A stretch of DNA of 64,000 nt, taken from NCBI GenBank assembly GCA_964544585.1, contig CAZJBV010000002.1, positions 3,468 to 67,467 of the forward strand, read 5' to 3'. Origin of the DNA: an uncultured Gammaproteobacteria bacterium. GTDB lineage: Bacteria > Patescibacteriota > Microgenomatia > 2-02-FULL-39-11. Under the pieces are notes generated by a model. That model was not told the origin of the DNA and made no database searches. It was given only the letters and a program-made list of their open reading frames with translations. The first letter of the stretch is position 1, and each line of letters starts with the position of its first letter. Of the stretch, positions 4,051-54,378 are shown piece by piece. A program made the position numbers and the translations under genes.

Positions 4051-4076
4051 ACGAACTAACACTAGACCACCAGAAT

Positions 4077-21778: not shown

Positions 21779-23421
21779 TTAAAATAAATAACATTTTAAT
21801 ACTATTACTGTTGGTTTTAGCAAGTCTTTTACGACTTTTTTTTCTGACAGAATATCCTTCAGGTTTCCACATAGATGAGGTAACTCTTGGTTACAACTCG
21901 TATCTTTTATTGCATACGCTCAAAGATGAAACCGGTAAGGTACTGCCTCTTTATTCTCAATCCTTCGGTCTTGATAGAGCTTTAGGAAATTTTCTTCTTG
22001 TGGCAGGGAGCGAAAAATTATTTGGCCTAACCGAACTAGCTATTCGCCTTCCTTTTGCCATATTTGGAATAGGCTCTGTCTTTCTTATGTATCTTCTCTC
22101 CCTAAAATTTCTCAGAAAAAGGCTCTATGCCTTAATTGTAGTTTTTGTGATAACCATCTCTCCTTGGCACATAAGTATAGTCCGGGCAAGTTCTGAAGCA
22201 AGTGTTTCTCTCTTTCTGATCCTATTGAGTCACTATCTCTTTTTCAACTTTCTCGAGGAAAAAAGGATAAAATTTCTTCTAACTTCTTTATTTAGTCTTA
22301 TCCTCTCTATCTTTTTCTACCATGCGGCATTTGGATACGTCCTTATTCTTCTTCCGGCTATCGGAATATTTATCCTATTTACATTGCCTCAAGAAAAAAT
22401 GAAATTGTTTTCACTCCTGGGTGTTATTGGGATAACAGTATTACTTCTAATCTATTTTTTCCTAAGTCGCGGAGGAGCAACAAGGTTAGATCAAGTAGGA
22501 TTTCACAAAGATACAAAAGTTATAATGGAGCAACAGAAAATGTTTTTCGAAGAAGGATCAAATTCCGTTTCTCAAGCAAGATTCTATCATAATAAAGTCG
22601 TCACATATATAAGAGCCATGTTGAATAACTATTCTGAATATTTTTCTCTTTCCTATCTATTTACACAGGGAGGACTACCGCCGCGCTATACAGCACCAGC
22701 CATGGGTTTACTCTATCTATTTGAAATACCCCTCCTTCTCTATGGCCTCTATAAATTATTTTCTAAAGACGTTCACTATGGAAGCTTTCTTGCGCTTTTA
22801 TTGATAACTAGTCCCTTTGTCGCCGCAACTACTTACGAATATTCCCCCAACGTTCAAAGATCTTTCTTCATGCTTCCTTACCTTATTCTTATAGTCGGCA
22901 TAGGTTTATATTACTCAATTAAAAAAGCCCAAAATAATAAAATATTTATTATCCTCATCGTTTTTTTCGTTTTTCTAAATACCCATTACTTCATGCATCA
23001 ATACTTTAAACATTTTCCAGTTCATAATCCACTCTACAGAAACGACGGCGCAAAAGAACTTGTCTCCTATGTTACTCAAAAAGTATCAAAGTATAATAGA
23101 ATTTTTATAACTAACTCTCCTGAATCTCCCTACTACTATTTCTTCTTTTATAATAAGTTGGATCCACAAAAATTTCATAATCTCTATAGTCAAATAAGAA
23201 ATAGTCCCGTCGGCTGGCTGTATGAAAAAAAGATTTTCTTCACCACATTTGAATGTCCATCCTTTTCAAAGGAACTACCTCAATTAAAAAATGCTCTTTA
23301 CATAGACAGCGGGGAATGCAAATACACTACAGATATAGAAACAGATTTTCATATAGAAAAAGAAATTTTAAGGAAGGATAATTCAGTAGCTTATCGATTG
23401 CTTATAAGAAAAGAAGAATGA
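21775..23421 (+). CDS. GT39/PMT-family GT-C glycosyltransferase, paralog 6 (most divergent)
   Basis: GFHIDEVTLGYNSYLLLHTLKDETGKVLPL motif, 548 aa. Confidence 0.7.
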   Translation: MIKINNILILLLLVLASLLRLFFLTEYPSGFHIDEVTLGYNSYLLLHTLKDETGKVLPLYSQSFGLDRALGNFLLVAGSEKLFGLTELAIRLPFAIFGIGSVFLMYLLSLKFLRKRLYALIVVFVITISPWHISIVRASSEASVSLFLILLSHYLFFNFLEEKRIKFLLTSLFSLILSIFFYHAAFGYVLILLPAIGIFILFTLPQEKMKLFSLLGVIGITVLLLIYFFLSRGGATRLDQVGFHKDTKVIMEQQKMFFEEGSNSVSQARFYHNKVVTYIRAMLNNYSEYFSLSYLFTQGGLPPRYTAPAMGLLYLFEIPLLLYGLYKLFSKDVHYGSFLALLLITSPFVAATTYEYSPNVQRSFFMLPYLILIVGIGLYYSIKKAQNNKIFIILIVFFVFLNTHYFMHQYFKHFPVHNPLYRNDGAKELVSYVTQKVSKYNRIFITNSPESPYYYFFFYNKLDPQKFHNLYSQIRNSPVGWLYEKKIFFTTFECPSFSKELPQLKNALYIDSGECKYTTDIETDFHIEKEILRKDNSVAYRLLIRKEE

Positions 23422-25034
23422 AGAAAGTCATATTTTTTTTATTGATTGTTGTTTTATCTCTCGCTTTGCGATTGTATAATCTATCCACCAATCCTCCATC
23501 TCTCTACTGGGACGAAGCTTCCCTGGGTTACAACGCCTACTCCATTCTTACTTCCGGCAAAGACGAACACGGAGAATTCTTCCCCCTGGCCCGCTTTATT
23601 GCTTTCGGCGATTTCAAACCACCCGGATATATTTATGCCGCGGCTTCTTCAATTGCCCTCTTTGGTTTAAATGAATTTGCCATCCGCTTTCCCTCATTTC
23701 TTTCCGGAACTCTATTGGTTCTTGGCGCATATCTTCTCACATCAAAGCTCCTGGGAAACACAAAAATTGCCCTCATTGCCGCATTTATAATGTCGATCTC
23801 ACCCTGGGGAATCCATTTTTCCCGCGCCGCCTTCGAAGCAAATATGGCTGCTACTCTAAACCTCTTTGCCATTTATTTTTTTATTTGCCAAAAAAAAAGA
23901 AGTTGGTATCTGGTTCTTTCTTTAATTTTCTTTATTCTTGCATTTTATACATTCAACGCCAACAGAATAATTTCTCCACTTCTAATAATAATTCTCTCTT
24001 TCTTATTTTGGCGTGATACTTTCAAAAATTGGCGCTGGGCAATTGCCGGAATTATTATTTCGGTATTTTTGCTATTACCTAGTGCCAAATATCTTTTAGA
24101 TAGAGAGAGTAGAATTCGTTTTCAGGAAGTCTCTATCTTCAACAACCTTGAAACTGTCAAAACGTCAAATGAAAGAATAGAAAGAGAAGGAGGGAACGTT
24201 ATCGCCAGGGTTCTTTACAACAGAAGAGTTTTATTTAGCCTTGATTTTTTAAAACATCTCACAGACAATTTTAACCTTCGCTTTCTTTTTACCCAGGCAG
24301 ACGCAAATCCCAGACTTTCTATAGAGGGGTTGGGTCTTCTTTATTTTTATGAATTACCATTTCTTATTATCGGAATAATATATCTATTAAAAACCAATCG
24401 TAAAGCCGCACTTTTAATTTTCACATGGATGATAATAGCGGCAGTTCCAGCTGGAACTGCTAGAGAAACACCACATGCGCTGCGCACCATTTCCATTCTT
24501 CCCACCTATCAAATCCTTATAGCTTCTGGCGTTTTGGCTCTATATTATTGGGTTAAAAATCTATCTGGCAAAAAAATACTGCCCATTAGTATAACTACCC
24601 TGACTATAGTAATCGCCTTTCATCTATATTATTTTCTTCACATGTATCTTATCCATTATCCCGTAAACTGGCCCGCTCAGTGGCAATATGGATATAAAGA
24701 GATGGTTCGATTTGTCCTCCAAAATAGGCAAAACTACGATAAAATTTATGTAACAGAAGCGCTTGGCCGTCCCTATATTTATTTTGCTTTATTTACGCCA
24801 TATAGCCAAGACGATTTCCAATTCAGACGCGATGCCTCTCGCGACTGGTTTGGTTTTTGGACAGTTCATTCACTAGATAATATCTATTTTAGTATCCCCC
24901 AAAGTCAGGAGTTAAAAGGCAAAGTCCTTTTAGTTGAGGGCAGAGACGCAATACTTCCACCAGACTTTATAATTATAAAAGAAATAAAAGAGCCAAACGG
25001 GAACGTAGTCTTTAAGATCGCCCAAAAAATATGA
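23418..25034 (+). CDS. GT39/PMT-family GT-C glycosyltransferase, paralog 7
   Basis: SLYWDEASLGYNAYSILTSGKDEHGEFFPL motif, 538 aa. Confidence 0.75.
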   Translation: MKKVIFFLLIVVLSLALRLYNLSTNPPSLYWDEASLGYNAYSILTSGKDEHGEFFPLARFIAFGDFKPPGYIYAAASSIALFGLNEFAIRFPSFLSGTLLVLGAYLLTSKLLGNTKIALIAAFIMSISPWGIHFSRAAFEANMAATLNLFAIYFFICQKKRSWYLVLSLIFFILAFYTFNANRIISPLLIIILSFLFWRDTFKNWRWAIAGIIISVFLLLPSAKYLLDRESRIRFQEVSIFNNLETVKTSNERIEREGGNVIARVLYNRRVLFSLDFLKHLTDNFNLRFLFTQADANPRLSIEGLGLLYFYELPFLIIGIIYLLKTNRKAALLIFTWMIIAAVPAGTARETPHALRTISILPTYQILIASGVLALYYWVKNLSGKKILPISITTLTIVIAFHLYYFLHMYLIHYPVNWPAQWQYGYKEMVRFVLQNRQNYDKIYVTEALGRPYIYFALFTPYSQDDFQFRRDASRDWFGFWTVHSLDNIYFSIPQSQELKGKVLLVEGRDAILPPDFIIIKEIKEPNGNVVFKIAQKI

Positions 25035-26635
25035 AAAAAATAATTATCCTTTCTATTTTTCTTCTTGCTTTTATCCTTCGTTTTTTCCATCTCGGACAAA
25101 ACCCTCCTTCCCTTGATTGGGACGAAGCTTCTCTCGGTTACAACGCATTTAGCCTCCTCAAAACTGGCAGAGATGAATATGGAGAGTTTCTCCCGCTTTC
25201 AATTCGTTCCTTTGGAGACTACAAACCTCCGCTTTATACCTATTTATCAATACCATTTGTAGCAATTTTCGGCCTCAACGAATTTTCAGTCCGATTTATT
25301 TCTGCATTATTCGGTACATTAACTACACTTGTTGTTTACCTTCTTGTCAAAAAAATATTTCCCGGAAAATCCTATATCTTTTATCTCTTATCTTTTATCT
25401 TTTTCGCCCTCTCGCCTTGGCATATCCAATTCTCCCGCATCGCCTTCGAAGCCAATCTCGCCCTCTTTTGGTTTATATTTGGAATTTATCTTCTCTTCAA
25501 AGGATTAGAAAAGGGACCATTTTTATTCATTGCATCATTTTCATTTGCTCTTTCCATGTATTCCTATCACAGTCCCAGGCTTCTTGTGCCTTTTCTTTTA
25601 GTTGGTTTTTCTCTCATCTTTAGAAAGTCGATAAAACAAAATTTAGCCTGGGCGGCAGTAGGCGCCATAACGATTATTTTATTAATCCTGCCAATTATTT
25701 ATCAGTTGACCTCAACCTCCGCAAGGCTAGGATCAGTCACTCTCTTTAATCCTTATGAAAGACTGGGGTCATCAATAAGAGATTTAGAGTACGATATGAA
25801 AAGAAATGATAACTTTGGCAAAATTCTCCATAACCGTCGCCTAATTTATGCCAAAGAGGCTTTCGCAGGATATTTAGATCACTTCAATTTTGACTTTTTG
25901 TTTTTGATAGGTGATCCACCCGGTAGACACCACGCGGCCGGCATGGGCATGCTCTATTTATGGGATTTCCCCTTTATTATTTTAGGTCTTGTCTATTTTC
26001 TCAAACATAGGGATAAGAGCGTTTCTTTCTTATTTTTATGGTTTCTCATTTCCCCCTTGGCATCTGCTATCACCACTGGTACTCCCCATGCAGTCCGAGC
26101 CATCTTTTATCTCCCTACATACCAGATTTTTTCCGCAGCTGGTGTAATTTTCTTTCTTACGTGGATCAAAAATCTTAACAAAAATATTAGATATTTTATA
26201 TTTATCTTTTATCTTTTATCTTTTATCTTTAATTTCTATTATTATCTCCGCATGTATTATATTCATACTCCAGTAGAGTACTCCTCGTGGTGGCAATACG
26301 GCTATAAACAAGTAGTTGAAGAAGTTTCAAAAAGGCAAAATCAATACGACAAAATCATCGTTACCTATAAATATGATCAACCCTATATATTCTTTCTTTT
26401 TTATCAAAAGTTCGATCCATCGGTATATCAAAAAAAATGGAGCGAAAGCAAAATAGAGCGAAGCGTTCGCTCATATGGAAAATATGAATTTCGCAACATT
26501 GAATGGTCAAAAGATAGCCAAAGCCCCAATACTCTCATCGTCGGAACCCCAGACGAAATACCAGAAGATATTAGTACCCTAAAAGAAATTAAATTTCTCG
26601 ACGGCACTCCCGCATTTAAGATAGTTGGGACCTAA
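25031..26635 (+). CDS. GT39/PMT-family GT-C glycosyltransferase, paralog 8; contains two (TTTTATC)n tracts
   Basis: SLDWDEASLGYNAFSLLKTGRDEYGEFLPL motif, 534 aa. Confidence 0.75.
   Translation: MKKIIILSIFLLAFILRFFHLGQNPPSLDWDEASLGYNAFSLLKTGRDEYGEFLPLSIRSFGDYKPPLYTYLSIPFVAIFGLNEFSVRFISALFGTLTTLVVYLLVKKIFPGKSYIFYLLSFIFFALSPWHIQFSRIAFEANLALFWFIFGIYLLFKGLEKGPFLFIASFSFALSMYSYHSPRLLVPFLLVGFSLIFRKSIKQNLAWAAVGAITIILLILPIIYQLTSTSARLGSVTLFNPYERLGSSIRDLEYDMKRNDNFGKILHNRRLIYAKEAFAGYLDHFNFDFLFLIGDPPGRHHAAGMGMLYLWDFPFIILGLVYFLKHRDKSVSFLFLWFLISPLASAITTGTPHAVRAIFYLPTYQIFSAAGVIFFLTWIKNLNKNIRYFIFIFYLLSFIFNFYYYLRMYYIHTPVEYSSWWQYGYKQVVEEVSKRQNQYDKIIVTYKYDQPYIFFLFYQKFDPSVYQKKWSESKIERSVRSYGKYEFRNIEWSKDSQSPNTLIVGTPDEIPEDISTLKEIKFLDGTPAFKIVGT
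25374..25410 (+). repeat. (TTTTATC)n-like heptanucleotide tract (imperfect) inside the CDS, encoding ..IFYLLSFIFF..
   Basis: tatcttttatctcttatcttttatcttttt read directly. Confidence 0.7.
26209..26232 (+). repeat. (TTTTATC)n heptanucleotide tract inside the CDS, encoding ..FIFYLLSFIFNF..
   Basis: tttatcttttatcttttatcttttatcttt read directly. Confidence 0.8.
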
Positions 26636-26668
26636 AATTCATTCATGATACAATTATCTAGCCTAAAC

Positions 26669-26755
26669 CACCTCGGACCTGCCTGCCGCCCTGCCTGCCG
26701 GCAGGCAGGGCAGGCAGGTTGGTGGCCCCGCTTAGCAGTGACTCCTCCGAGGTGG
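26669..26755. repeat. GC-rich nested palindromic element (type 2, long), intergenic, ending 13 nt before the start of the next gene
   Basis: CACCTCGGA-CCTGCCTGCCgccCTGCCTGCCGGCAGGCAGGgCAGGCAGG-...-CTCCTCCGAGGTGG. Outer inverted repeat CACCTCGGAG/CTCCGAGGTG, inner duplicated-arm palindrome. Confidence 0.9.
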
Positions 26756-26768
26756 GTGAATCAAAACT

Positions 26769-27695
26769 ATGAAAATCATGGTGACCGGCGGAGCCGGTTT
26801 TATTGGATCAAATATTGTAGATGACTTTATTAAATTAGGCCACCAGGTAGTTGTGGTTGATGACCTAAGCTCTGGGAAAAAAGAGTTCATCAATCCCAAA
26901 GCTAAATTTTACCAAATAGATATTCGCAAAAGGGAAGACTTAAAAGCAATTTTTACCAAGGAAAAGCCAGAAATCCTCAATCACCAAGCAGCCCAAATAA
27001 GCGTCAGAAAATCAGTCGAAGATCCCCATTTTGACGCAGAAATAAACATCTTGGGACTCATAAATCTCTTGGAGGAGGTAAAAGAAAATGGTATCAAAAA
27101 AGTAATTTTTGCTTCATCAGGCGGAGCCATTTATGGAGATGCCAAAACCATTCCTACCCCAGAAGATTACGAACCAAAAATCCCTTTATCCCCCTATGGA
27201 GTCACAAAACTTACCTCCGAATTTTATCTCCAATACTATTTCTCCAATTTTAAAATTCCTTATATTTCTCTTCGGTATGCCAATGTTTATGGACCCAGGC
27301 AAAATCCAGATGGAGAAGCCGGTGTCGTTGCCATTTTTAGTAAAAAACTACTCAAAAATATTCCCCCCACCATAAATGGGGACGGAAAGCAAACCCGAGA
27401 TTATATATTTGTTGGTGACGTCGTCGACGCAAACATAAAGGCCCTTACTTCCAATTTTGTAGGCCTAGTCAATATTGCCACCGGAAAAGAAACAGACGTC
27501 ATAACTATTTTCAATAAATTAGTAAATATGGTCGGAGTAAAAATTAATCCAATTTTTGGCCCTGCCAAACAAGGCGAGCAAAAAAAAAGTTGCCTTAAAA
27601 TTGATCGAGCAAAAAAAGTATTATCCTGGACTCCAGAGGTAAATTTGGAACAAGGTCTCAGAAAAACTATTGACTATTTTAGGACCAGAAATTGA
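26769..27695 (+). CDS. NAD-dependent epimerase/dehydratase, extended SDR (UDP-glucose 4-epimerase GalE-like)
   Basis: MKIMVTGGAGFIGSN Rossmann motif, YANVYGPRQ, and the catalytic S...YxxxK context. 308 aa. Confidence 0.75.
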   Translation: MKIMVTGGAGFIGSNIVDDFIKLGHQVVVVDDLSSGKKEFINPKAKFYQIDIRKREDLKAIFTKEKPEILNHQAAQISVRKSVEDPHFDAEINILGLINLLEEVKENGIKKVIFASSGGAIYGDAKTIPTPEDYEPKIPLSPYGVTKLTSEFYLQYYFSNFKIPYISLRYANVYGPRQNPDGEAGVVAIFSKKLLKNIPPTINGDGKQTRDYIFVGDVVDANIKALTSNFVGLVNIATGKETDVITIFNKLVNMVGVKINPIFGPAKQGEQKKSCLKIDRAKKVLSWTPEVNLEQGLRKTIDYFRTRN

Positions 27696-29161
27696 AAAAA
27701 AATAAGCAAAAAAAAGTAATTATTTTAGGCGGAGGTCTTGCCGGCCTCGCCGCGGGTTTTGAACTAACCAAAAATAAATTCGATGTCACAGTTATTGAAA
27801 AGTGGTCTGAAGTAGGCGGCCTTGCACGCACCATAAAAGTAGGCGATTTTAAATTTGATACAGGCCCTCATCGTTGGTACACCAAAAGTGACATGGTCAA
27901 TAAATGGATGCTAGCTCTTCTTGGGGATGAAGTCATCAAAGTACCCAGACTTACGCGAATTTATTTTGACAAAACATTCTTTTTCTATCCCATCAAACTC
28001 AAAAATGCTCTCCTTGGCATTGGAGTAATCAACGCCTTTATGTCTGTAGTGGATTATTTTTCCGCAAGACTTAAAGCCCGACTATTCCCACCCCCCCTAA
28101 AGACGATGGAAGACGGCTATATAAACCAGTTTGGCCGCAAACTTTATGAAATCTTTTTTAAAAGATATAGTGAAAAACTCTGGGGGGTAGACTGTAGTGA
28201 GATAAGCGTCGATTGGGTAGGACAAAGAACCAGGGGTTTAAGCATATTAACCATCATCAAAGACGCCTTTATCAAATCTCGCCATGTAGTCTCCCTAGTC
28301 GACGAATTTTCATATCCCAAAAAAGGAGTAGGCAGAATTGCCGAAAAGCTAAAAGAAGGAATAGAAAAACACAAAGGTCAAGTCATTCTTTCAGCCGAGG
28401 TAACCAAAATCATCACCAAAGACGATAAAATTATGGGAGTCGAGTATAAAAAAAACGGCAAAATTTACAAACAAGAAGGAGACGAATTTATCTCCAGCAT
28501 TCCCATAACAGATTTTGTGAAGCGCTTAGATCAGAAACCAGATACCCAAACACAAAAAAGTACCAACAAGTTAAAATATAGAGACGAAGTCCAAGTAGTT
28601 CTTTTTATAGGAAAAACCCATATTACTCCCGATACATGGGTCTATGTCCATCCCAAAGATATTTCCTTTATGCGCTTTATGGAAATGGATAACTGGAGTA
28701 ACGTTTTGTCCCCCGAAGGTAAAACTTCAATTGTCTTCGAAATTGCCTGTAATGAGGGCGATAAAATCTGGAATAAAAAGGACAAAGAGCTAATCAAAAT
28801 GGTATCCCAGGAATTTATCAAGGAATTTGGCCTTGTCTCTCCTAAAGACATAATCGGCGGATACGTTCATCGGGTACCAAAAGAGTACCCCGTCTATCAT
28901 ATAGGATATAAAGAGGATGTCGCCGCATTAAAAAATTATCTCCATAGATTCAAAAATCTGCAACTAGTAGGTAGAAATGGCACATTTCGCTACAACAACA
29001 TGGATCATTCCATAGAAATGGGTTTATATGCCGCCTTGAATATAAGAGCTGGGAATAAAAAGTATGATATAGACTCTGTCAATATAGAAAGAGAATATCT
29101 TGAGGAAAAGAAGATAGAAACAATAGAAGATGAAAGAGTAGAAAAACCTATTACATCATGA
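27692..29161 (+). CDS. FAD/NAD(P)-binding oxidoreductase (amine-oxidase/protoporphyrinogen-oxidase-like fold)
   Basis: VIILGGGLAGLAAGFEL...V.V.EK....GG dinucleotide-binding motif. 489 aa. Confidence 0.55.
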   Translation: MKKNKQKKVIILGGGLAGLAAGFELTKNKFDVTVIEKWSEVGGLARTIKVGDFKFDTGPHRWYTKSDMVNKWMLALLGDEVIKVPRLTRIYFDKTFFFYPIKLKNALLGIGVINAFMSVVDYFSARLKARLFPPPLKTMEDGYINQFGRKLYEIFFKRYSEKLWGVDCSEISVDWVGQRTRGLSILTIIKDAFIKSRHVVSLVDEFSYPKKGVGRIAEKLKEGIEKHKGQVILSAEVTKIITKDDKIMGVEYKKNGKIYKQEGDEFISSIPITDFVKRLDQKPDTQTQKSTNKLKYRDEVQVVLFIGKTHITPDTWVYVHPKDISFMRFMEMDNWSNVLSPEGKTSIVFEIACNEGDKIWNKKDKELIKMVSQEFIKEFGLVSPKDIIGGYVHRVPKEYPVYHIGYKEDVAALKNYLHRFKNLQLVGRNGTFRYNNMDHSIEMGLYAALNIRAGNKKYDIDSVNIEREYLEEKKIETIEDERVEKPITS

Positions 29162-29907
29162 AAAAAGTAATTGTGGTTATGCCTGCTTATAACGCAGAAA
29201 AGACGATTGAGAAGACATACTGGGATATTCCTAAAAATGTCATTTCCGAGGTCATAGTCGTAGATGACGATAGTCGTGACAAAACAGTTGAGATTGCTAA
29301 ACGTCTAAAACTCCCGGTCGTAGTCCACCCCAAAAATCTCGGTTACGGTGGTAATCAAAAGACATGCTATAAAAATGCACTGGAAAGGCATGCTGATATC
29401 GTCGTCATGATTCACCCCGATTATCAATACGACGCCACCCTAACCGTTGACCTAATTAAACCAATTAAAGAAGGAAAAGCAGATATCATGCTTGGAAGCA
29501 GAATCCGCTCGAGACAGGAAGCATTGGCAGGCGGCATGCCATTATATAAATACATCAGTAATAGAGTTCTGACTCTTATCGAAAATATTATTCTCGGCCT
29601 AAACCTTTCCGAATATCACACCGGCTTTAGAGCTTTTAAAAGAGAAGTTTTATATAAACTTCCCCTCAAGAATTTTTCCAATGACTTTGTCTTCGACCAA
29701 GAAATTTTAATTTCTGCCCACGCCGCCGGCTTTAAAATGGGCGAAATCGCAGTCCCAGTTCGCTATTTCAAAGAAGCTTCATCAATAAATTTTATTAAGT
29801 CTGTTGTTTATGGAATAATGATCCTTGCAACATTGGCAAAATTTATTCTATTTAAATTAGGCGTCCCAAGCAATCAATTTAAATTCGCAAAGTCATCGCC
29901 CAAATGA
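29158..29907 (+). CDS. GT2 polyprenyl-phosphate sugar synthase (Dpm1/GtrB/CsbB-like)
   Basis: VIVVMPAYNAEKTIEKT.......EVIVVDDDSRDKT..IA......V.....N.GYGGN....... ..DIVVMIHPDYQYD. 249 aa. 4-nt overlap with the downstream YfhO-like gene. Confidence 0.7.
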   Translation: MKKVIVVMPAYNAEKTIEKTYWDIPKNVISEVIVVDDDSRDKTVEIAKRLKLPVVVHPKNLGYGGNQKTCYKNALERHADIVVMIHPDYQYDATLTVDLIKPIKEGKADIMLGSRIRSRQEALAGGMPLYKYISNRVLTLIENIILGLNLSEYHTGFRAFKREVLYKLPLKNFSNDFVFDQEILISAHAAGFKMGEIAVPVRYFKEASSINFIKSVVYGIMILATLAKFILFKLGVPSNQFKFAKSSPK

Positions 29908-31547
29908 AAAAAGATATTTTCGTTATTATTCTTATTTTTGTCATCTCTTTCTTTACCCTCAAAGACCTTTGGAAGCCCGAATTCTATACTAGTCACGATG
30001 GAGCCCATCAAGTCGTCCGTCTTTACTATTGGGATCAAGCCATCAAGGATGGACATATTCCCCCAAGATGGGTAGGAGGGCTCCTCAATGGTGCGGGTTA
30101 CCCTCTCTTTATTTTTTCCTATCATATGCCTTGGATTATTGCCGAGCCATTCGTCCTGGCAGGCTTTTCTATTATTGAGGCAATAGAGATCACTTTTTTT
30201 CTAGGCTTTGCCCTCTCCGGCACAACCATGTATATTCTTCAAAAGGCGCTTTACGGTCGATTTGGAGCTTTGGTGGGTACAACTATCTATCTTTTTGCTC
30301 CCTACCGCTTCTCCAACATTTTTGTTAGGGGTGCCATAGGCGACGCAACCACTTTTATTTTTATACCACTTTTATTTTTATCTCTCTATAAAATTGTTCA
30401 GGAAAAAAGTATTTCCTGGATTTATGTCACTTTAGGGGCTCTTTCACTTGCCGCCATACTTCTTTCTCACGCCATGGTCTTTCTCTTTATTTTTCTCGCC
30501 ATGTTTTTATTCTTTTTTTATTTTTTACCGCATGCTACCAACAAAAAAATATTTTCTCTAAATACACTCTTTATTATTGCATTTGGTTTTGCCATATCAA
30601 GTTATTACTTTTTACCATCGCTTCTTGAAAGAAATTTAACCATGTTTCCGCAAGTTATAAAACAAGTTTTTAGCGGACAGACATTTCTCACCATTCGCGA
30701 TCTTCTCTACACTCCCTGGGGATATGGTTTACTCGACGCCAAAATTGGTCGCATGTCTTTTCAAGTAGGTATAGCTCAATGGATTGCATTCTTAATAAGT
30801 CTTTTAGTATTGGTTTGGGAAATAATCAAGAGGAAAACAAATAAGCTTGCATTATTTTATGTATTACTATTTTTATTATCCATATTTATGATGCTTGAAA
30901 TATCTTATCCAATCTGGTTATTAATAGAAAAAATTGCCATCATTGATTTTTCCTGGCGTATTCTCCCCTTGACAGTATTTTCCGCATCAGTATTGGCTGG
31001 ATTTATCATTTCAAGATCTCGCATAGGAATTATTTTCGGAATCTTATTAATTTCCCTTGCAGTCTATGGAAACAGAAATCACTTACGCATTAATAAGCCT
31101 CTAGATTGGGATATACCCTTTTATTTAACACTCGAAAAGACTACAAATAGCTACGATGAATATACCCCTCTTTCCGCCCGTCAAGATAAAATAAAGGTAA
31201 AACGGCCCAAAATTGACTTAGTTGGCGTCAAAGGTACTTTTAAAATTTTGAAAAATTCATCAAATAAAGTTCTTGCCGAAGTTAATACCGAAACGAGTGG
31301 ACATGTCAGCATAAATAATATCTACTATCCTGGCTGGGAAATAAAAGTCAACGGTATAAAAACCAATATCTTCGACTATTATGGATTTCTAGGTATCAAC
31401 GTCCCACGAGGATTTTCCAAAATCGAAGCAAAATTTACCGAAACTCCCTTACGAAAGGCAGGTAATATAATTACTCTTGTATCCATGTTATTCTTATTTT
31501 ATAAAGTATTTAGATCATTCAAAAAGAAAAAGAAATTACATGCATAA
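29904..31547 (+). CDS. YfhO-family polytopic membrane protein (GT-C candidate), second copy
   Basis: Multi-TM N-terminal region. C-terminus ..NIYYPGWEIKVNGIKTNIFDYYGFLGINVPRGFSKIEAKF is the YfhO signature. Directly downstream of the CsbB-like GT2, as in csbB-yfhO of Bacillus. Confidence 0.6.
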   Translation: MKKDIFVIILIFVISFFTLKDLWKPEFYTSHDGAHQVVRLYYWDQAIKDGHIPPRWVGGLLNGAGYPLFIFSYHMPWIIAEPFVLAGFSIIEAIEITFFLGFALSGTTMYILQKALYGRFGALVGTTIYLFAPYRFSNIFVRGAIGDATTFIFIPLLFLSLYKIVQEKSISWIYVTLGALSLAAILLSHAMVFLFIFLAMFLFFFYFLPHATNKKIFSLNTLFIIAFGFAISSYYFLPSLLERNLTMFPQVIKQVFSGQTFLTIRDLLYTPWGYGLLDAKIGRMSFQVGIAQWIAFLISLLVLVWEIIKRKTNKLALFYVLLFLLSIFMMLEISYPIWLLIEKIAIIDFSWRILPLTVFSASVLAGFIISRSRIGIIFGILLISLAVYGNRNHLRINKPLDWDIPFYLTLEKTTNSYDEYTPLSARQDKIKVKRPKIDLVGVKGTFKILKNSSNKVLAEVNTETSGHVSINNIYYPGWEIKVNGIKTNIFDYYGFLGINVPRGFSKIEAKFTETPLRKAGNIITLVSMLFLFYKVFRSFKKKKKLHA

Positions 31548-33237
31548 AAAAATATTTTTGTGGATAAACAATCATCGAAAACTTTTGTTAATATTTGCCT
31601 TTATTTTTATAAGTTTTTTAGTTAATTCAATTCACACCCAGTTTCCCGACGAATTCGATAATATATTCGGTGGATACCTCATTAACCAAGGAAAGCTTCC
31701 CTATATTGGTTTTTTCACCCATCACAACCCTGGTGCCTACGTACTAGCATCTTTTATTACCATGTTTACAGAAAGAAGCTTCGTATTTTTCCGAATTATT
31801 TTTTCTTTTATTTTATTTATTTGGTTTGTTGTTAGCTTTTTTATAATTAAAAATAGACTAAAAGACCAAAATCCAATTTATTTTATTCTTTATGGAGTAC
31901 TCATCGCCCTGGGAAGTACATACTGGTGGGGACAAATGTTATTGTCAGAAACGATCGTCGGCCACCTTCTAGTTCCCGTAATGCTTATTATGATTGGCAA
32001 GGATCTCATGCAAATTCGATTTGATATAAAAGATATATGGATAATATCTCTTCTTACATTCTTGTCTCTTTTTACATCCCTCACCTATATTTATTTTATT
32101 CCTTTTGTATTACTAATTACTTTTTATTTTTATTTAAGGGATAATAAACCCTTTACCCCCAAAAACATAATTACCCCACTTATTATATTCACTTTCCCTT
32201 ATCTTATCTTTTTTATATACCTTATCTTAACAGGATCATTATTTGAGTTTTATTTTGCCTCAATTTATTACAACGTAAATTATTATATTTACAATTTCCC
32301 CAAGGTTGCAGGTATACATTCACACCACCCTGTTCGATACGCCATCTCAATTGCCAGAAATTCCATAGATGGCATTTCGGCTCTTCTTACCCAAATTCCT
32401 TCATTCAATCTCTCTTATCCCATGAACATTTCTCTAGCCCTAGGAAATCTCATCGCCATTATTTATTTTCTCCTAAAACGTCGCTTTGGCCTGACTTTAC
32501 TCTTAACTAGCATGATGATATATACAAACGCCAGAAGCGAGCCACTCAATATTCATGAAACCGATTTTCATGCCACCGTGTATATCATGCTCACCATCGC
32601 CACCACTATGTATATTTTTTCTAAAATAAAAAATGATTTAGATAAAAAGTATCCTTTTTCATTTAAAAGCATTTTTGCCTTCTTATTTATTCTTGGCGGA
32701 GTATACTGGCTTTTTGCCGCCATGTTTTGGGGCAATAGTTTTATGAATAAAGCCTATGATAAATTAATGGGTAATGCTCCTCTTATTTACGATAGACCTC
32801 AAACTGGACGCATACTAAACACACTCCTTACCAAAGATGATTATTATTGGATAGGACCCTTTGAACTCCAGGAACTATTATTTATAAATGGTCAACAGGC
32901 ATCAAAATACTTTTGGTTTCTTCCCGCCAACAGTCGCGATGAAAAAATTAAAAGGGAAATAATTGCCGATTTTGACAAAACCAAACCAAAAGTCATCCTC
33001 TTTAAAGATTGGTGGTCTAATTTTGGCGTCACACCGGAACAGTTCAACACAACGATTGTCACTTACCTTGACAAAAATTATTTCCAGTTAGAAGATCTCA
33101 AAAACGAAGGTTTAGAATTTACCGTAAATATGCCCCGCGAAAGAGATTTCGATTTTGAGAATGAACTCTATTTTAGAAAAGATCAAAAAGAAAAAATAGT
33201 CGCCGAATTATTTTCTAAAAATTTAATTCAAAAATAG
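31540..33237 (+). CDS. Polytopic membrane protein, hypothetical (N-terminal about 400 aa TM-rich, soluble C-terminal domain)
   Basis: ORF. ATG at 31540 overlaps the previous stop (ATGCATAA). The ORF track extends in-frame to 31477, but that would overlap the upstream gene by 70 nt. Confidence 0.4.
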   Translation: MHKKIFLWINNHRKLLLIFAFIFISFLVNSIHTQFPDEFDNIFGGYLINQGKLPYIGFFTHHNPGAYVLASFITMFTERSFVFFRIIFSFILFIWFVVSFFIIKNRLKDQNPIYFILYGVLIALGSTYWWGQMLLSETIVGHLLVPVMLIMIGKDLMQIRFDIKDIWIISLLTFLSLFTSLTYIYFIPFVLLITFYFYLRDNKPFTPKNIITPLIIFTFPYLIFFIYLILTGSLFEFYFASIYYNVNYYIYNFPKVAGIHSHHPVRYAISIARNSIDGISALLTQIPSFNLSYPMNISLALGNLIAIIYFLLKRRFGLTLLLTSMMIYTNARSEPLNIHETDFHATVYIMLTIATTMYIFSKIKNDLDKKYPFSFKSIFAFLFILGGVYWLFAAMFWGNSFMNKAYDKLMGNAPLIYDRPQTGRILNTLLTKDDYYWIGPFELQELLFINGQQASKYFWFLPANSRDEKIKREIIADFDKTKPKVILFKDWWSNFGVTPEQFNTTIVTYLDKNYFQLEDLKNEGLEFTVNMPRERDFDFENELYFRKDQKEKIVAELFSKNLIQK

Positions 33238-33276
33238 TTCTATAAACAAACTGATTAAGACAAAATTGACTTAAAA

Positions 33277-33377
33277 CACCTCGGACCTGCCTGCCGCCCT
33301 GCCTGCCGGCAGGCAGGGCAGGCAGGTTGGTGGCCCGCCAGCAACTGCGTAGCTGTGGGCGGGACTCCTCCGAGGTG
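33277..33377. repeat. GC-rich nested palindromic element (type 2, longest copy), intergenic, ending 15 nt before the start codon
   Basis: Identical to 26669-26730 over the first 62 nt, then diverges, and re-converges at GGGACTCCTCCGAGGTGG. Followed by AGGAATCAAAACTCATGAAAAT. Confidence 0.9.
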
Positions 33378-33392
33378 GAGGAATCAAAACTC

Positions 33393-34181
33393 ATGAAAAT
33401 TTCAGTTGCAATAGCCACATACAACGAGGAACAAAACATCGGTAGATGTCTCAAAAGCGTTGCCGATTGGGTTTCCGAAATTGTAGTCGTTGATGGAGGA
33501 TCCACCGATAAAACTAGAGAAATAGCCAGGCAGTACAAAGCAAGAGTCATCAAAACAGATAACCCACCCATATTTCATATTAATAAAAATAAGGCCATAG
33601 ACGCATGTCGGGGAGACTGGATATTACAGCTTGACGCCGACGAAGTAGTCACGCCTCCCTTAAAAGAAGAAATACTCAAAACGATCAACAATCGGTTTGA
33701 TGGTTTCTGGCTTCCCCGCAAAAACTTTTTTTTAGGGAAATTTTTGACCAAAGGAGGTCAATATCCCGACTACACTCTTCGGCTTTATAGAAAAGGTAAA
33801 GGCAAACTCCCAGCCAAATCAGTCCATGAACAAGCCGCTATCGTTGGGGAAGTTGGCTTTTTACATAACCCCTTGGAGCATTTCCCTTATCCAGATTTTT
33901 CTCATTACCTGGATCATTTCAACCGCTACACTACTATCCTTGCGACTGAATTTGCCAGCCAAAATGTTTCTTTAAACTTTTTAAATACGATTATTTATAT
34001 GTTCATAAAGCCCAAATTATGGTTTTTGTCTACATATTTAAGGCATAAAGGATTTATAGACGGATTTCCGGGATTGGTTTTTTCATTCTTTTCTGCTCTT
34101 CGATTTCCCACAGCCTATATCAAATATTGGGAAATGTCGGTCAAAGGCCGATCCGCCTTTGGCGGAAATAAAAAGGCATGA
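33393..34181 (+). CDS. Family 2 glycosyltransferase (GT2), paralog of 5016 and 6829
   Basis: MKISVAIATYNEEQNIGRCLKSVADWVSEIVVVDGGSTDKT and LQLDADEVV. The start is taken at the Met just after the palindromic element. The ORF track's 33327 start lies inside the element. Confidence 0.75.
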   Translation: MKISVAIATYNEEQNIGRCLKSVADWVSEIVVVDGGSTDKTREIARQYKARVIKTDNPPIFHINKNKAIDACRGDWILQLDADEVVTPPLKEEILKTINNRFDGFWLPRKNFFLGKFLTKGGQYPDYTLRLYRKGKGKLPAKSVHEQAAIVGEVGFLHNPLEHFPYPDFSHYLDHFNRYTTILATEFASQNVSLNFLNTIIYMFIKPKLWFLSTYLRHKGFIDGFPGLVFSFFSALRFPTAYIKYWEMSVKGRSAFGGNKKA

Positions 34182-35170
34182 AAGTTGCACTTATCAAGCC
34201 CCCCCTGATTGGCCATACAATGCGTGGCACCGGAAAATATACCACAGAATTATTCAAAGCCCTCAAAAAACAAAATATTGATATCGATCTGGTTGAATAT
34301 CATTCCAACCTCAATTCCTTTGACCTGGTTCACTACCCCTATTTTGACCCCTTTTTTCTTACACTTCCATTATTTAAAAAAAGACCAACAATTGTCACAG
34401 TCCACGATCTTATTCCTCTTGTCTTTCCAGAGCATTTCCCTAAAGGCATAAAAGGTAACATAAAATGGCAAATGCAAAAGTTTGCCTTAAAAAACGTAGA
34501 CGAAATAATAACTGATTCAAATGCATCCAAAAAAGATATTATCAGACTCATCCCATACCCTGAAAATAAGATCAATGTTATTTATCTTGGTGTAGGCAAG
34601 GAGTTCAGGCAAATTAAAGACTCAGCAATCCTTTCCAAAACAAAAAATAAATATTCATTGCCAGATCAGTTTATACTTTACGTTGGAGATCGAAATTATA
34701 ATAAAAATGTAGATGGCCTTTTAATGGCTTTCCAGAAGATTGCAAAAGATTATTCCAATATTTATTTGGTATTAATCGGCAAAGGCTTCACTGATCTTCA
34801 AACCCCACCGCATGTTCTCAAATTTCATTCATTAACAAGCGAGGAGATGGTACACATATATAATCTTTCCAGAGCATACATTCAACCATCTTTTGCCGAA
34901 GGTTTTGGTTTACCGGTATTGGAGGCAATGGCTTGCGGCTGTCCCACAGTAGTCAGCAATACCTCAAGTCTTTCTGAAATAAAGGCTCCCAAATCAGTTT
35001 TAATCGATCCAAAAAATGTCGAAAGCATAAAGAGAGGAATTATAAAAGTATTAACAAGTAGTCCACAGCAAATTAACGAAATAATAATTGATGGTCTAAA
35101 AAACGCCCAACAATTTTCCTGGGATAAATGCGCCCAAGAAACAATCAAAATATATAAGATATATGTTTAA
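34178..35170 (+). CDS. Family 4 glycosyltransferase (GT4)
   Basis: ..FAEGFGLPVLEAMACGCPTVVSNTSSLSEI C-terminal GT-B motif. Confidence 0.8.
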   Translation: MKVALIKPPLIGHTMRGTGKYTTELFKALKKQNIDIDLVEYHSNLNSFDLVHYPYFDPFFLTLPLFKKRPTIVTVHDLIPLVFPEHFPKGIKGNIKWQMQKFALKNVDEIITDSNASKKDIIRLIPYPENKINVIYLGVGKEFRQIKDSAILSKTKNKYSLPDQFILYVGDRNYNKNVDGLLMAFQKIAKDYSNIYLVLIGKGFTDLQTPPHVLKFHSLTSEEMVHIYNLSRAYIQPSFAEGFGLPVLEAMACGCPTVVSNTSSLSEIKAPKSVLIDPKNVESIKRGIIKVLTSSPQQINEIIIDGLKNAQQFSWDKCAQETIKIYKIYV

Positions 35171-36311
35171 GCGGATTTTATTAGTATTTAGCATCTGGAG
35201 AATATTACTTTTCCTGCTAGCTTATTTGGCTACTTTTATTTTACCCTTTACACCCCGCTTTCCCTATTCAGAAGCGCTTCTTATTCCATCCCTACTCCCT
35301 CCTTGGATATGGAGCTTTGCCAATTTTGATGGGGTACACTATATTACCATCGCCACCCGAGGTTATAGCGCCCAGTTTACTCAAGTATTTTTCCCCTTAT
35401 ACCCACTCCTTATTAGTCCAATTGTTTATTTATTTTCAGACAAATTCGCCATCATTTCAGGTTTAATAATTTCCAATTTAGCCTTCTTGCTATCTCTTTA
35501 CTTATTTACCAAACTAATTCTTCTTGACTATAGTCCAAAAATAATGTTTTGGACTCTCATATTTTTATTGACATTTCCTACTTCTTTCTATTTTGGCGGA
35601 CTCTACTCCGAAAGCTTATTTTTTCTTTTTATAATTGGTAGTTTTTACGCCGCCCGAAAAAAAAGGTGGTGGTTGGCAGGAATATTGGGTGCGCTAGCAA
35701 GTGCCACCCGTCTAGTAGGTATATTTTTACTCCCCGCACTATTATGGGAATATTATCATCAAAATAAAATAAAAAATAAAAATCTTTTATCTTTTATCTT
35801 TTATCTTTTATCTTCTCCAATTTTATATCTCGTTCCCCTCGGACTAATAAGCTATATGTTATATTTGCAACTAGCCTTCGGCGACTGGCTCTATTTCTGG
35901 CATATCCAACCGATCTTCGGTGCCGAAAGAAGTGGTACTAGCATAATCCTACTTCCACAAGTATTTTTTCGTTATCTAAAAATTCTTCTTTCAGTTCCTT
36001 TCACCATTGAATCGTTTTTTATTCCCCTTACCGAATTATTATCAACTACATTGGCCATCATGTTACTTTTCGTCGCTTGGAAAAAACGAGTCAGAATTTC
36101 TTATATTATCTTTTCATCTCTTGCCGTGTTAGTACCTACTTTGACTGGAACATTTTCCAGTATGCCCAGATACATTCTCATAGCTTTCCCCCTTTATATT
36201 GTTTTAGGATCAATAAAATCTCCCTTCGTAAAGATAATTTTACTAACTGTCGCAAGCCTCCTTTTAGGATTTTTGCTAATCCTATTTACTAGAGGTACAT
36301 GGGTGGCGTAA
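35163..36311 (+). CDS. Polytopic membrane glycosyltransferase candidate (GT-C; PIG-V/DUF2029-like mannosyltransferase family)
   Basis: ..W.W.FANFDGVHYITIATRGY motif near the N-terminus, resembling the 'FD..HY..IA..GY' box of PIG-V/DUF2029 proteins. About 10 TM. Contains a (TTTTATC)n tract. Confidence 0.4.
   Translation: MFKRILLVFSIWRILLFLLAYLATFILPFTPRFPYSEALLIPSLLPPWIWSFANFDGVHYITIATRGYSAQFTQVFFPLYPLLISPIVYLFSDKFAIISGLIISNLAFLLSLYLFTKLILLDYSPKIMFWTLIFLLTFPTSFYFGGLYSESLFFLFIIGSFYAARKKRWWLAGILGALASATRLVGIFLLPALLWEYYHQNKIKNKNLLSFIFYLLSSPILYLVPLGLISYMLYLQLAFGDWLYFWHIQPIFGAERSGTSIILLPQVFFRYLKILLSVPFTIESFFIPLTELLSTTLAIMLLFVAWKKRVRISYIIFSSLAVLVPTLTGTFSSMPRYILIAFPLYIVLGSIKSPFVKIILLTVASLLLGFLLILFTRGTWVA
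35782..35814 (+). repeat. (TTTTATC)n heptanucleotide tract, about 4.5 units, inside the CDS, encoding NLLSFIFYLLSS
   Basis: atcttttatcttttatcttttatcttttatcttc read directly. Confidence 0.85.
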
Positions 36312-36320
36312 AATGGCAGC

Positions 36321-37001
36321 ATGAAATTATTAATAGCCATCCCGGCCTACAACGAAGAATCAACTATCAGAAAAGTAATTAAATCTATTCCTCCAAAAAT
36401 AAAAGACATAAAAAAGATAGAGACTATTATCATAGATGACGGCTCTGAAGATAACACGGGAAAAGTAGCAGAAAAATATGGGGCAATAGTCTTAAGACAC
36501 CTAATCAATAGGGGATTGGGAGGAGCCATCGCCACTGCCTTAGAGTATGCAAAGATCAATAATTATGACTTACTCATTACCCTGGACGCTGATGGACAAC
36601 ATGAACCCAAAGATATTCCTATATTTATAAACTCAATTAGAGTCAACAAAAATGATGTAGTTATCGGCTCGCGATGGTTGAATGGTAGCGATGCACCCCT
36701 GTCGAGAATCTTTATAAATAAAATAGCCAATTTCCTTACTTTTTTTCTTTGCGGCGTATTTTCTACCGATTCGCAGTCTGGTTATCGCGCATTTAGTAAA
36801 AATGCAATTCAGAAAGTCAATCTCCACACCAGCGGTATGGAAGTATCAAGCGAAATATTTAGTGAAATTTATAAAAATAAGTTAAAATATGGTGAAGTAC
36901 CGATAAAGGCAATTTACACTAAATATTCAAAAGCCAAAGGACAACGTTTGTCTGATGCTCCGGATGTTTTAATTCGTTTAATAATAAGAATTTTAAGTTA
37001 G
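36321..37001 (+). CDS. GT2 polyprenyl-phosphate sugar synthase (Dpm1/GtrB-like), second copy
   Basis: LLIAIPAYNEESTIRKVI.......IIIDDGSEDNTGKVAEKYGA.V.RH..N.GLGGA......A......LLITLDADGQHEP. Confidence 0.7.
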   Translation: MKLLIAIPAYNEESTIRKVIKSIPPKIKDIKKIETIIIDDGSEDNTGKVAEKYGAIVLRHLINRGLGGAIATALEYAKINNYDLLITLDADGQHEPKDIPIFINSIRVNKNDVVIGSRWLNGSDAPLSRIFINKIANFLTFFLCGVFSTDSQSGYRAFSKNAIQKVNLHTSGMEVSSEIFSEIYKNKLKYGEVPIKAIYTKYSKAKGQRLSDAPDVLIRLIIRILS

Positions 37002-37006
37002 ATACT

Positions 37007-37363
37007 ATGACGCTAACTCAAATTGTTTTAACCCTCTTTCTCATATTTGCCTTAAGTAGGGTGATACTCAGGTACCAAAGCAAAGAAGTATCTTTCCGTG
37101 GGCTTATATTTTGGACTTGTGTTTTTGGCTTGGCCATAATTGCCGAGCTCTTTCCCAATATCACTACCGAAATTGCCAAAATGTTAGGAATCACCAGAGG
37201 AGTCGACGCCGTAGTTTATACATCCATTGCTCTTTTATTTTATCTTGTATTTAGGCTCTATGTTTACTTAGAGGATATCAGAAAAGAAATTACCGCCCTA
37301 ATAAGAATGATAGCCATAAAAGATAAGTCTTCGCATGATCACAAAAAATCTTCCCAAAATTAG
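37007..37363 (+). CDS. DUF2304 family small membrane protein (usual partner of Dpm1-like GT2s; possible GtrA-like accessory)
   Basis: 118 aa, two TM helices separated by ..FPNIT.EIAKMLGI.RGVDAV.. Located 6 nt downstream of the Dpm1-like GT2. Confidence 0.55.
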   Translation: MTLTQIVLTLFLIFALSRVILRYQSKEVSFRGLIFWTCVFGLAIIAELFPNITTEIAKMLGITRGVDAVVYTSIALLFYLVFRLYVYLEDIRKEITALIRMIAIKDKSSHDHKKSSQN

Positions 37364-45710: not shown

Positions 45711-45816
45711 AACTTAGTTCAGAACCGATTTCGTAGCGAAAGACCATAGGTTCTCGCGAAATTGGTGAAAAGCGACGAAGGAGTATATGGCAATATACTT
45801 CTAGGAGCTTTGAACC

Positions 45817-45836
45817 CTGCCTGCCGGCAGGCAGGC
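45817..45836. repeat. Solo copy of the 20-bp palindrome core CCTGCCTGCCGGCAGGCAGG in the 188-bp intergenic region upstream of asnB
   Basis: Perfect palindrome read directly. No flanking outer inverted repeat. Confidence 0.85.
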
Positions 45837-49830: not shown

Positions 49831-49840
49831 TTCTAAAAAA

Positions 49841-54371: not shown

Positions 54372-54378
54372 AACTCAT

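Follow-up and report, generated by a model that had tools for sequence, protein, structure and literature searches.

A conserved gene cassette with a UDP-galactopyranose mutase-like flavoenzyme, probably for lipid-linked glycosylation, in a surface-glycan locus of Candidatus Gottesmanbacteria

Here we describe a group of four overlapping genes in a 64 kb stretch of contig CAZJBV010000002.1 (assembly GCA_964544585.1, positions 3,468 to 67,467; hereafter the window), whose exact and close homologues are found in Candidatus Gottesmanbacteria and other Patescibacteria. The four genes (26769-31547) encode, from 5' to 3', a UDP-glucose 4-epimerase (GalE), a flavoenzyme resembling UDP-galactopyranose mutase (UGM), a family 2 glycosyltransferase (GT2a) and a polytopic glycosyltransferase of the GT-C fold. 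We put the probability at about 0.6 that they form one translationally coupled cassette of a surface-glycan locus of the Gottesmanbacteria (Patescibacteria, or candidate phyla radiation, CPR) and, jointly with this, that the cassette serves lipid-linked glycosylation of the three-component type, with the UGM-like enzyme probably giving UDP-galactofuranose (UDP-Galf). The GT2/GT-C pair most likely decorates the cell surface via a lipid-carried sugar, and the extra enzymes suggest that this sugar may be galactose in the furanose form. The further idea that the cassette marks an undescribed lipid-linked galactofuranose route is tentative and, on balance, doubtful.

The GT2/GT-C gene pair

The third gene product, GT2a, is a putative polyprenyl-phosphate sugar synthase (Table 1). 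It matched Pfam PF00535 with 78 bits, its best NCBIfam matches were AglJ, PpgS and the haloarchaeal dolichyl-phosphate (Dol-P) hexose transferase, and its best PDB match was the Dol-P-mannose synthase of Pyrococcus furiosus (DPMS, 5mlz), which was also the best match of a second synthase candidate of the window, GT2c (36321-37001). All NCBIfam scores of these two proteins stayed far under the equivalog cutoffs (e.g., 143 vs. 370 for PpgS and 82 vs. 325 for AglJ). Both are short (226-249 amino acids) with at most one transmembrane (TM) segment each, in GT2a at residues 209-227, and neither bore any likeness to processive synthases in the NCBIfam and PDB comparisons. An earlier note on this DNA had called GT2a Dpm1/CsbB-like and GT2c Dpm1-like, and their closest relatives, all polyprenyl-phosphate sugar synthases (AglJ, PpgS, the Dol-P-hexose transferase and 5mlz), agree with this. 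They are the only lipid-sugar synthase candidates among the nine GT2s of the window; the other seven resemble SunS, rhamnosyltransferases, TuaG or HpsE, lack TM segments and appear to be ordinary Leloir enzymes.

In GT2a and all of its orthologues the sequence HPDYQYD replaces the DADLQH of DPMS, so that the first aspartate is substituted while the second aspartate and the glutamine are kept. Besides this invariant motif, the GT2a subfamily (the window and loci L002-L010 and L088-L090) has a conserved insertion, RSRQEALAGGMPLYKY, and the HPDYQYD subfamily was seen solely alongside GT-C proteins of the type described next.

The membrane protein encoded directly downstream (29904-31547, hereafter the 29904 protein) is a GT-C enzyme with a YfhO-like architecture; it is probably a distant relative of YfhO and is not a member of that family. 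The earlier note had labelled it as YfhO-family, a label that has to be withdrawn: the protein had no match to the Pfam YfhO model (PF09586) even at E ≤ 10 and matched PF10131 (PTPS_related) instead, with 32.5 bits at a cutoff of 26.4. The precomputed Pfam labels of its 310 detected homologues were PF10131, a faint PF09586, both or none, which places the family between the two models. An AlphaFold2 (AF2) model based on an alignment of 51 homologues was of high confidence (predicted local distance difference test, pLDDT, 91.3; predicted TM-score, pTM, 0.92) and contained approximately 12 TM helices, with a beta-sandwich (residues 437-511) inserted after the penultimate one (TM11) and before the final helix (515-546), as well as a helix at 375-389 preceding the sandwich. 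Both termini are rich in lysine and thus probably cytoplasmic in this model, which puts the first loop, like the beta-sandwich, on the outer side. The architecture described for YfhO in PMC7389260, in which the last two of about 12 TM helices flank a large extracytoplasmic domain, is accordingly present in the predicted structure, and the extracytoplasmic C-terminal domain anticipated in the earlier note was recovered as the beta-sandwich.

The top Foldseek matches of this model in the PDB were all GT-C enzymes (STT3, AftA, AftD, DPY19, ArnT and PglB; probability 1.0, TM-score ~0.45), with no YfhO structure among these PDB matches, and a PDB search with the sequence returned no matching chain. 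In profile comparisons (HHalign) the 29904 family reached a probability of 93.9% with the window's own YfhO (8590-10848), restricted to the catalytic N-terminal core (columns 45-240 vs. 83-273), and 64.7% with the PMT_2 paralogues of the window. A histidine and an aspartate in the first outside loop (H31 and D32) are invariant in the 51 sequences. Taken with the GT2 matches and the GT-C fold, this invariant pair favors the functional reading proposed earlier, in which the GT2 would make a lipid-phosphate sugar and the membrane protein would transfer it outside.

The GT2a gene overlaps both of its neighbours by 4 nt, sharing the letters ATGA with the 29904 gene, and all open reading frames (ORFs) and the 4-nt overlap lie where they had first been placed. 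Downstream, the ORF at 31477-33237 encodes a further polytopic membrane protein, for which the TTG start at 31477 (586 amino acids) is probably wrong, as the gene call of an identical Logan contig implies an ATG at 31540 and thereby an overlap of 8 nt with the stop of the GT-C gene. This protein had no Pfam match and no HHalign match to GT-C profiles. Its orthologues are present in L006 and L010 and absent from L005, L007 and L008.

The epimerase and the UGM-like flavoenzyme

The first cassette gene encodes a GalE-type short-chain dehydrogenase/reductase (SDR) that matched the UDP-glucose 4-epimerase of Thermotoga maritima (4zrm) with 293.5 bits (E 1.6e-86) and Pfam Epimerase with 194 bits, and its stop overlaps the start of the flavoenzyme gene. 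The flavoenzyme itself belongs to NCBIfam NF005548 (PRK07208; 477.7 bits, cutoff 389), a family that NCBI names "hypothetical protein". Its best PDB sequence matches were all UGMs, and a profile built from 30 family members matched the UGMs of Trypanosoma cruzi (TcUGM) and Aspergillus fumigatus over their full length (E 7e-25 to 1e-22). The AF2 model (pLDDT 83.9) was closest to TcUGM (TM-score 0.80/0.84, root mean square deviation 3.3-3.4 Å), followed by protoporphyrinogen oxidases (TM-score ~0.72). It contains a low-confidence segment at residues 179-203, which we take to be at the position of the mobile flaps of UGMs.

Nine active-site residues of UGMs and their roles have been described (PMC4192007; the TcUGM chain numbering used here is +3 relative to that source). 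In a HMMER alignment to TcUGM, eight of the nine are identical in the flavoenzyme and invariant in the 30 family members (H60, R179, Y318, R328, Y399, R428, Y434 and N436, corresponding to TcUGM H62, R176, Y317, R327, Y395, R423, Y429 and N433). Judged from these matches and from the predicted structure, the flavoenzyme probably contracts the sugar ring to give UDP-Galf. The csbB-yfhO-like gene pair reported in the earlier note is real, and what that note had missed is that GalE and the UGM-like flavoenzyme upstream are part of the same conserved unit.

Conservation of the cassette

Gene order was compared in 12 independent contexts, namely the window and 11 other loci with homologues down to 37% identity. 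The HPDYQ-type GT2 occurs with a 29904-type GT-C in all 12 and is directly adjacent to it in 11, a single PMT_2 gene separating the two in the twelfth, so that the adjacency is not a matter of chance. The complete order of epimerase, flavoenzyme, GT2a and GT-C is kept in five loci (L005, L006, L007, L009 and L010), L008 has the same order without the epimerase, and L089 (38% identity) carries the cassette with one inserted PMT_2 gene. The flavoenzyme precedes the pair in the window as well as in seven of the 11 further loci whose upstream side is covered, six of these seven having GalE as well.

The flavoenzyme family in other lineages

When one genome per species was scanned, the flavoenzyme family turned up in at least 596 bacterial and archaeal species, and the neighbourhoods of 71 loci outside the Gottesmanbacteria/Microgenomates were sampled. 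Polytopic membrane proteins accounted for 25% of the genes next to the flavoenzyme vs. 7.8% of those farther off (Fisher p ~1e-7), and 31 of the 71 loci had a directly adjacent polytopic protein encoded on the same strand. According to Pfam and HHalign, these polytopic neighbours included at least 14 GT-C proteins of the PMT_2 type and five members of a DUF6020 cluster. Among the Dpm1-like GT2s in the flavoenzyme neighbourhoods of other phyla, the seven top-scoring ones were all closest to ArnC, AglJ, PpgS or the Dol-P-hexose transferase; such a GT2 lies directly beside the flavoenzyme in L014 and beside a divergent flavoenzyme paralogue in L028.

Several further features of these loci were recorded. 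In an uncultured member of the Bacilli (L046:1361-3292), the product of the gene directly 5' of the flavoenzyme homologue joins a polytopic DUF6020 domain to a GtrA domain at its C terminus (PF04138, 85 bits); the DUF6020 cluster also has members in L035, L056, L063 and L067, and no function for DUF6020 is described in the searchable literature. The divergent paralogue of L028 (4266-6383, minus strand; Altiarchaeota), in which Leu-His replaces the Arg-Tyr pair, is directly 5' of an AglJ/PpgS-like GT2, with a second, canonical flavoenzyme copy 1.5 kb off on the other strand. An HPDYQ-type GT2 that had seemed to lie beside the L028 flavoenzyme was rejected, as the motif belongs to a spurious reverse-frame ORF and the real GT2 has DCD. 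The homologues of Desulfobacterales and relatives (L014-L017 and L020-L022) are ~100-150 amino acids longer and end in a conserved C-terminal hairpin of two TM segments, by which they would be anchored in the membrane. The acidic motif (E)EYLEE that precedes this hairpin is also the end of the window flavoenzyme.

Other genes of the window

The window has a G+C content of ~36% and nearly all of its genes are on the forward strand. Pfam scans of ~55 window proteins characterize the whole 64 kb as a glycan-biosynthesis locus, whose main features are collected in Table 1. A promoter and terminator scan of 26400-38300 yielded no more sites than shuffled sequence, and the operon limits were hence drawn from the gene overlaps.

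Table 1 Coordinates of the cassette and of other glycosylation features in the window
Feature	Position	Strand	Basis of assignment
Wzx-like MOP-family transporter	901-2364	+	Polysacc_synt_3 167 bits
Genuine YfhO-family GT-C, 752 aa	8590-10848	+	PF09586 108.8 bits vs. cutoff 28.5
PMT_2 (GT39/GT83-like) GT-C array, nine divergent paralogues and one half-length fragment (14197-15108)	10863-26635	+	PMT_2/PMT matches
UDP-glucose 4-epimerase (GalE-type SDR), first cassette gene	26769-27695	+	PDB and Pfam matches
UGM-like flavoenzyme (NF005548/PRK07208)	27692-29161	+	NF005548, PDB, AF2 model
GT2a, Dpm1/AglJ/PpgS-like GT2, 249 aa, one C-terminal TM helix, putative polyprenyl-phosphate sugar synthase	29158-29907	+	PF00535, NCBIfam, PDB
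GT-C glycosyltransferase, ~12 TM helices, YfhO-like architecture, 547 aa	29904-31547	+	PF10131, AF2 model, Foldseek
Polytopic membrane protein, 565 aa, optional locus member	31540-33237	+	Start from Logan gene call
PIG-V-like GT-C protein	35163-36311	+	PF04188 35.1 bits vs. cutoff 22.4
GT2c, PpgS/GacI-like GT2, 226 aa, second putative polyprenyl-phosphate sugar synthase	36321-37001	+	NCBIfam, PDB
DUF2304 small membrane protein, 118 aa, three TM, GacJ/Rv3632-type activating subunit	37007-37363	+	PF10066

Three of these genes (35163-37363) form a second module. GT2c had PpgS as its best NCBIfam match (NF058614, 143 bits, cutoff 370), followed by AglJ, the Dol-P-hexose transferase, PgfS and ArnC, and 5mlz followed by ArnC in the PDB; it has the canonical motif DADGQH and no C-terminal TM segment. 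The DUF2304 gene begins 6 nt past the GT2c stop, and its product matched PF10066 with 81.1 bits (cutoff 25.5), so the pair exists as had been noted earlier, with three predicted TM segments in the small protein. The GtrA-like flippase role then suggested for it does not fit what is known of the family: GacJ is a DUF2304 member that stimulates GacI, and PpgS is stimulated by Rv3632 (bioRxiv 10.1101/180810), for which reason we regard the window protein as an activator of the synthase. The PIG-V-like protein (~9 TM segments) is likely the transferase partner of this module; its gene adjoins the GT2/DUF2304 pair in L007 and L089, where this pair recurs, and is located directly 3' of a 29904-type GT-C gene in L003, L004 and L090.

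In total, 15 GT-C-type proteins were supported by Pfam and HHalign, slightly fewer than the roughly 17 first estimated: one YfhO, nine PMT_2 paralogues, one half-length PMT_2 fragment, the 29904 protein, one PIG-V-like protein and the proteins at 41642 and 44250, which were placed as GT-C by HHalign. Three more polytopic proteins, all unassigned, fall outside this count. The dense GT-C content pointed out earlier is present, but it is not special to this genome, since related genomes have the same arrangement (L005-L010 and L089), which makes it typical of the lineage. A YfhO gene was correctly located ahead of the GT39 array, and it has no adjoining Dpm1-type GT2, the GT2s upstream of it being SunS-like or rhamnosyltransferase-like. 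The nine PMT_2 paralogues share 18-39% pairwise identity and each has the D-E motif in loop 1. The ORF at 14197-15108 (303 amino acids) aligns only with the C-terminal half of these paralogues (HHalign 97.7%) and is probably a truncated or decaying copy.

No match to GtrA (PF04138) was obtained among the window proteins scanned; small upstream ORFs at 3264-4968, which lay outside the scan, are hydrophilic and were rejected as GtrA-type flippases on this ground. The only transporter candidates in the window are the Wzx-like protein and an ABC-2 exporter pair (48994-51115), and with no GtrA found the Wzx-like protein became the candidate flippase. The description of the region as several complete three-component modules was therefore too strong, as just two lipid-sugar synthases were found in it and none of its scanned proteins is a GtrA-family flippase.

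Two side observations concern the locus at large. A GC-rich nested palindrome with the core CCTGCCTGCCGGCAGGCAGG is present in five copies (13671-13690, 14945-14964, 26690-26709, 33298-33317 and 45816-45835), where none is expected in a window of 36% GC, each core lying in an element of ~70-110 nt. Three copies are located just 5' of genes (GalE, the GT2 at 33327 and AsnB at 45899) and two are inside PMT_2 paralogue ORFs with the in-frame translation LKHLKGGRNA[Y/C]LPAGRDSFQV, one of them in the ORF at 14197-15108. The copy at 26655-26768 has a folding energy of -61.6 kcal/mol (z -4.9), and the palindrome looks like a mobile palindromic element of the REP (repetitive extragenic palindrome) or RPE (Rickettsia palindromic element) kind. 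In addition, a carbamoyltransferase, an AsnB-type amidotransferase, a GNAT protein, a phosphopantetheinyl transferase and an acyl-AMP ligase are encoded in the locus (39078-40766, 45899-47845, 53430-55649 and, on the minus strand, 57201-58946), the ligase gene being the sole long minus-strand gene of the window; judged from these accessory enzymes, the locus product may contain sugars that are carbamoylated, amidated or acylated.

Proposed pathway and alternative explanations

In the pathway that we propose, GalE would convert UDP-glucose to UDP-galactose and the UGM-like flavoenzyme would probably contract the ring to UDP-Galf. GT2a, held at the membrane by its single C-terminal helix, would then transfer the sugar to polyprenyl phosphate at the cytoplasmic face, a flippase, for which the Wzx-like protein is a candidate, would move the lipid-linked sugar outward, and the 29904 GT-C, with its His31-Asp32 loop and outside beta-sandwich, would pass it on to a glycopolymer or protein acceptor on the extracytoplasmic side. 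In the second module, GT2c and its putative DUF2304 activator would make the donor for the PIG-V-like GT-C, and both lipid-sugar donors would probably also feed other GT-C paralogues in the window. What the data show directly are the fold and family assignments, the conserved residues, the overlaps and the gene order; the sugar with its ring form, the lipid, the acceptor, the flippase and the flipping step are parts of this scheme that we infer from the genes.

Several observations weigh against this pathway. GT2a lacks the first aspartate of the DXD motif, and in the flavoenzyme Asn201 of TcUGM, the ninth active-site residue, has no clear counterpart. The curated UGM models did not recognize the flavoenzyme either (TIGR00031, 48.3 vs. 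303.75 bits; PF03275, 18.8 vs. 26.3). Of 77 flavoenzyme loci in other lineages, only eight carry a Dpm1-like GT2 within 8 kb, and the distant loci L003, L004, L088 and L090 keep GT2a and the GT-C with no flavoenzyme or GalE within the flank, so that the pair may not depend on a mutase. Gene overlaps are, moreover, routine in these compact operons, and coupling is therefore weak evidence of a shared pathway. Finally, the Leloir enzymes of the locus (GT2 and GT4) could equally be the users of UDP-Galf.

This last point leads to the explanation that we regard as a serious but minority possibility, namely that the pair is an ordinary module handling a common hexopyranose (glucose, galactose, mannose or N-acetylglucosamine), and that GalE and the UGM-like enzyme supply cytoplasmic Leloir GT2 and GT4 enzymes building a main polymer exported by the Wzx-like protein or the ABC system. 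The window does contain seven Leloir-type GT2s, several GT4s, the Wzx-like protein and the ABC-2 exporter, the known users of UDP-Galf are cytoplasmic transferases, and the four loci just mentioned keep the pair without a nearby flavoenzyme. Such a division of labour is at odds with the position of GT2a directly 3' of the flavoenzyme in the window and in L005-L010, and with the enrichment of the flavoenzyme family beside GT-C, GtrA-fused and Dpm1-like genes in unrelated phyla, which would be unexpected if it served Leloir enzymes only. There is also a bolder extension of our preferred pathway, which we offer as speculation: NF005548/PRK07208 could be a widespread prokaryotic branch of the eukaryote-type UGMs dedicated to a lipid-phosphate hexofuranose donor (e.g., polyprenyl-phosphate galactofuranose) for GT-C enzymes, the window cassette being its most complete genetic example. 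Such a branch would be the hexofuranose equivalent of the pentofuranose three-component systems.

It is improbable, in our estimation, that the substrate of the flavoenzyme is instead the GT2 product, the lipid-linked sugar, whose ring it would contract or which it would oxidise in the manner of DprE1/DprE2 and of the Citrobacter pentofuranose epimerase. In favor of this, two uridine-contact positions of the A. fumigatus UGM, presumably Gln107 and Asn163, appear replaced in the flavoenzyme. Many flavoenzyme homologues stand beside a GT-C without a GT2 nearby, those of the Desulfobacterales have the two-TM anchor, and epimerisation on the lipid has a precedent (PMC11127046). The arginine and tyrosine residues that bind the diphosphate in UGMs and the histidine loop are nevertheless invariant, the window flavoenzyme has no TM segment, and GalE is by similarity a self-sufficient nucleotide-sugar epimerase. 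A DprE1/DprE2-type version, with flavoenzyme and SDR jointly epimerising the sugar on the lipid, was considered and ranked low, given the strong match of the SDR to GalE and the UGM fold of the flavoenzyme, which is not that of DprE1 (vanillyl alcohol oxidase type, VAO).

About equally improbable is that GT2a is a Leloir transferase acting on a growing glycan, with the 29904 protein as a polymerase, ligase or other membrane enzyme. The distance of the NCBIfam scores from the equivalog cutoffs and the atypical HPD in place of DXD would fit such a role, as would the single TM helix of GT2a compared with the two of GtrB and CsbB, although yeast-type Dpm1 likewise has only one C-terminal TM helix. 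What speaks for a lipid-sugar synthase is that the best NCBIfam and PDB matches are all of this kind and that the pairing with the GT-C is strict across the 12 loci.

Significance and comparison with known systems

Three-component glycosylation is well known for hexopyranoses and was extended to pentofuranoses derived from phosphoribosyl pyrophosphate (PRPP) only in 2024. If the proposed pathway is true, the cassette would represent a route by which a UDP-sugar precursor supplies furanose sugars for attachment beyond the membrane, and a large flavoenzyme family still named "hypothetical" by NCBI would gain a function. The cassette would also provide a way into the surface chemistry of uncultivated bacteria of the CPR, whose small genomes are given over to GT-C enzymes to an unusual extent. 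If the ordinary explanation holds, it is one more lineage-typical three-component module. The searchable literature, which is itself incomplete, yielded no account of a lipid-phosphate galactofuranose donor or another hexofuranose counterpart and no report of a function for NF005548; nothing relevant on GT-C systems of the CPR was found there either.

The closest parallel in gene order is CsbB-YfhO(-GtcA) of Bacillus subtilis and Staphylococcus aureus, which glycosylates lipoteichoic acid and likewise has the GT2 gene directly 5' of the GT-C gene in one operon. Its proposed logic is the synthesis of an undecaprenyl-phosphate (C55-P) sugar, its flipping and the transfer outside the membrane (PMC7389260). 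The window cassette differs in a GT-C that misses the Pfam YfhO model and is much shorter than the window's own YfhO (547 vs. 752 amino acids), in the single TM helix and HPD motif of GT2a, in the lack of GtcA/GtrA and in the addition of GalE and the UGM-like flavoenzyme. The Pgf system of Streptococcus mutans (PgfS, PgfE, PgfM1 and PgfM2) similarly comprises a lipid-sugar synthase of the GT-A type and a 4-epimerase together with outside-acting GT-C enzymes of the YfhO type, and as it O-glycosylates proteins, it illustrates that acceptors of such modules can be proteins (PMC12041528). In contrast to the cassette, Pgf has no flavoenzyme, its sugar is N-acetylgalactosamine in the pyranose form, and its GT-Cs are annotated with the YfhO domain.

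The second module resembles GacI-GacJ-GacK-GacL of Group A Streptococcus and PpgS-Rv3632 of Mycobacterium tuberculosis in having a PpgS/GacI-like GT2 followed by a DUF2304 protein, and a GT-C gene adjoins it as gacL does near gacIJ. Unlike in these systems, GT2c is under the PpgS cutoff, the adjoining GT-C is PIG-V-like, and there is no GacK-like gene next to GT2c.

For the furanose form, the nearest comparison is with the pentofuranose three-component systems (Citrobacter youngae ORF12-15, GT136) and with mycobacterial decaprenyl-phosphate arabinofuranose, where lipid-phosphate furanose donors serve outside-acting GT-C enzymes and auxiliary enzymes set the sugar (PMC11127046). Those systems start from PRPP via UbiA-type synthases and modify the sugar on the lipid, whereas the window cassette has no UbiA-type protein and its UDP-sugar route (GalE, the UGM-like enzyme and the GT2) would give a hexofuranose. 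With the eukaryote-type UGMs of T. cruzi and A. fumigatus, the flavoenzyme shares the fold (TM-score ~0.8), a full-length profile match and the eight active-site residues, but it is only ~18-21% identical to them and has an extra conserved C-terminal motif, NIEREYLEEK. It also differs from UGMs in the company that it keeps, its neighbours being GT-C, GtrA and Dpm1-like genes and not those of cytoplasmic galactofuranosyltransferases.

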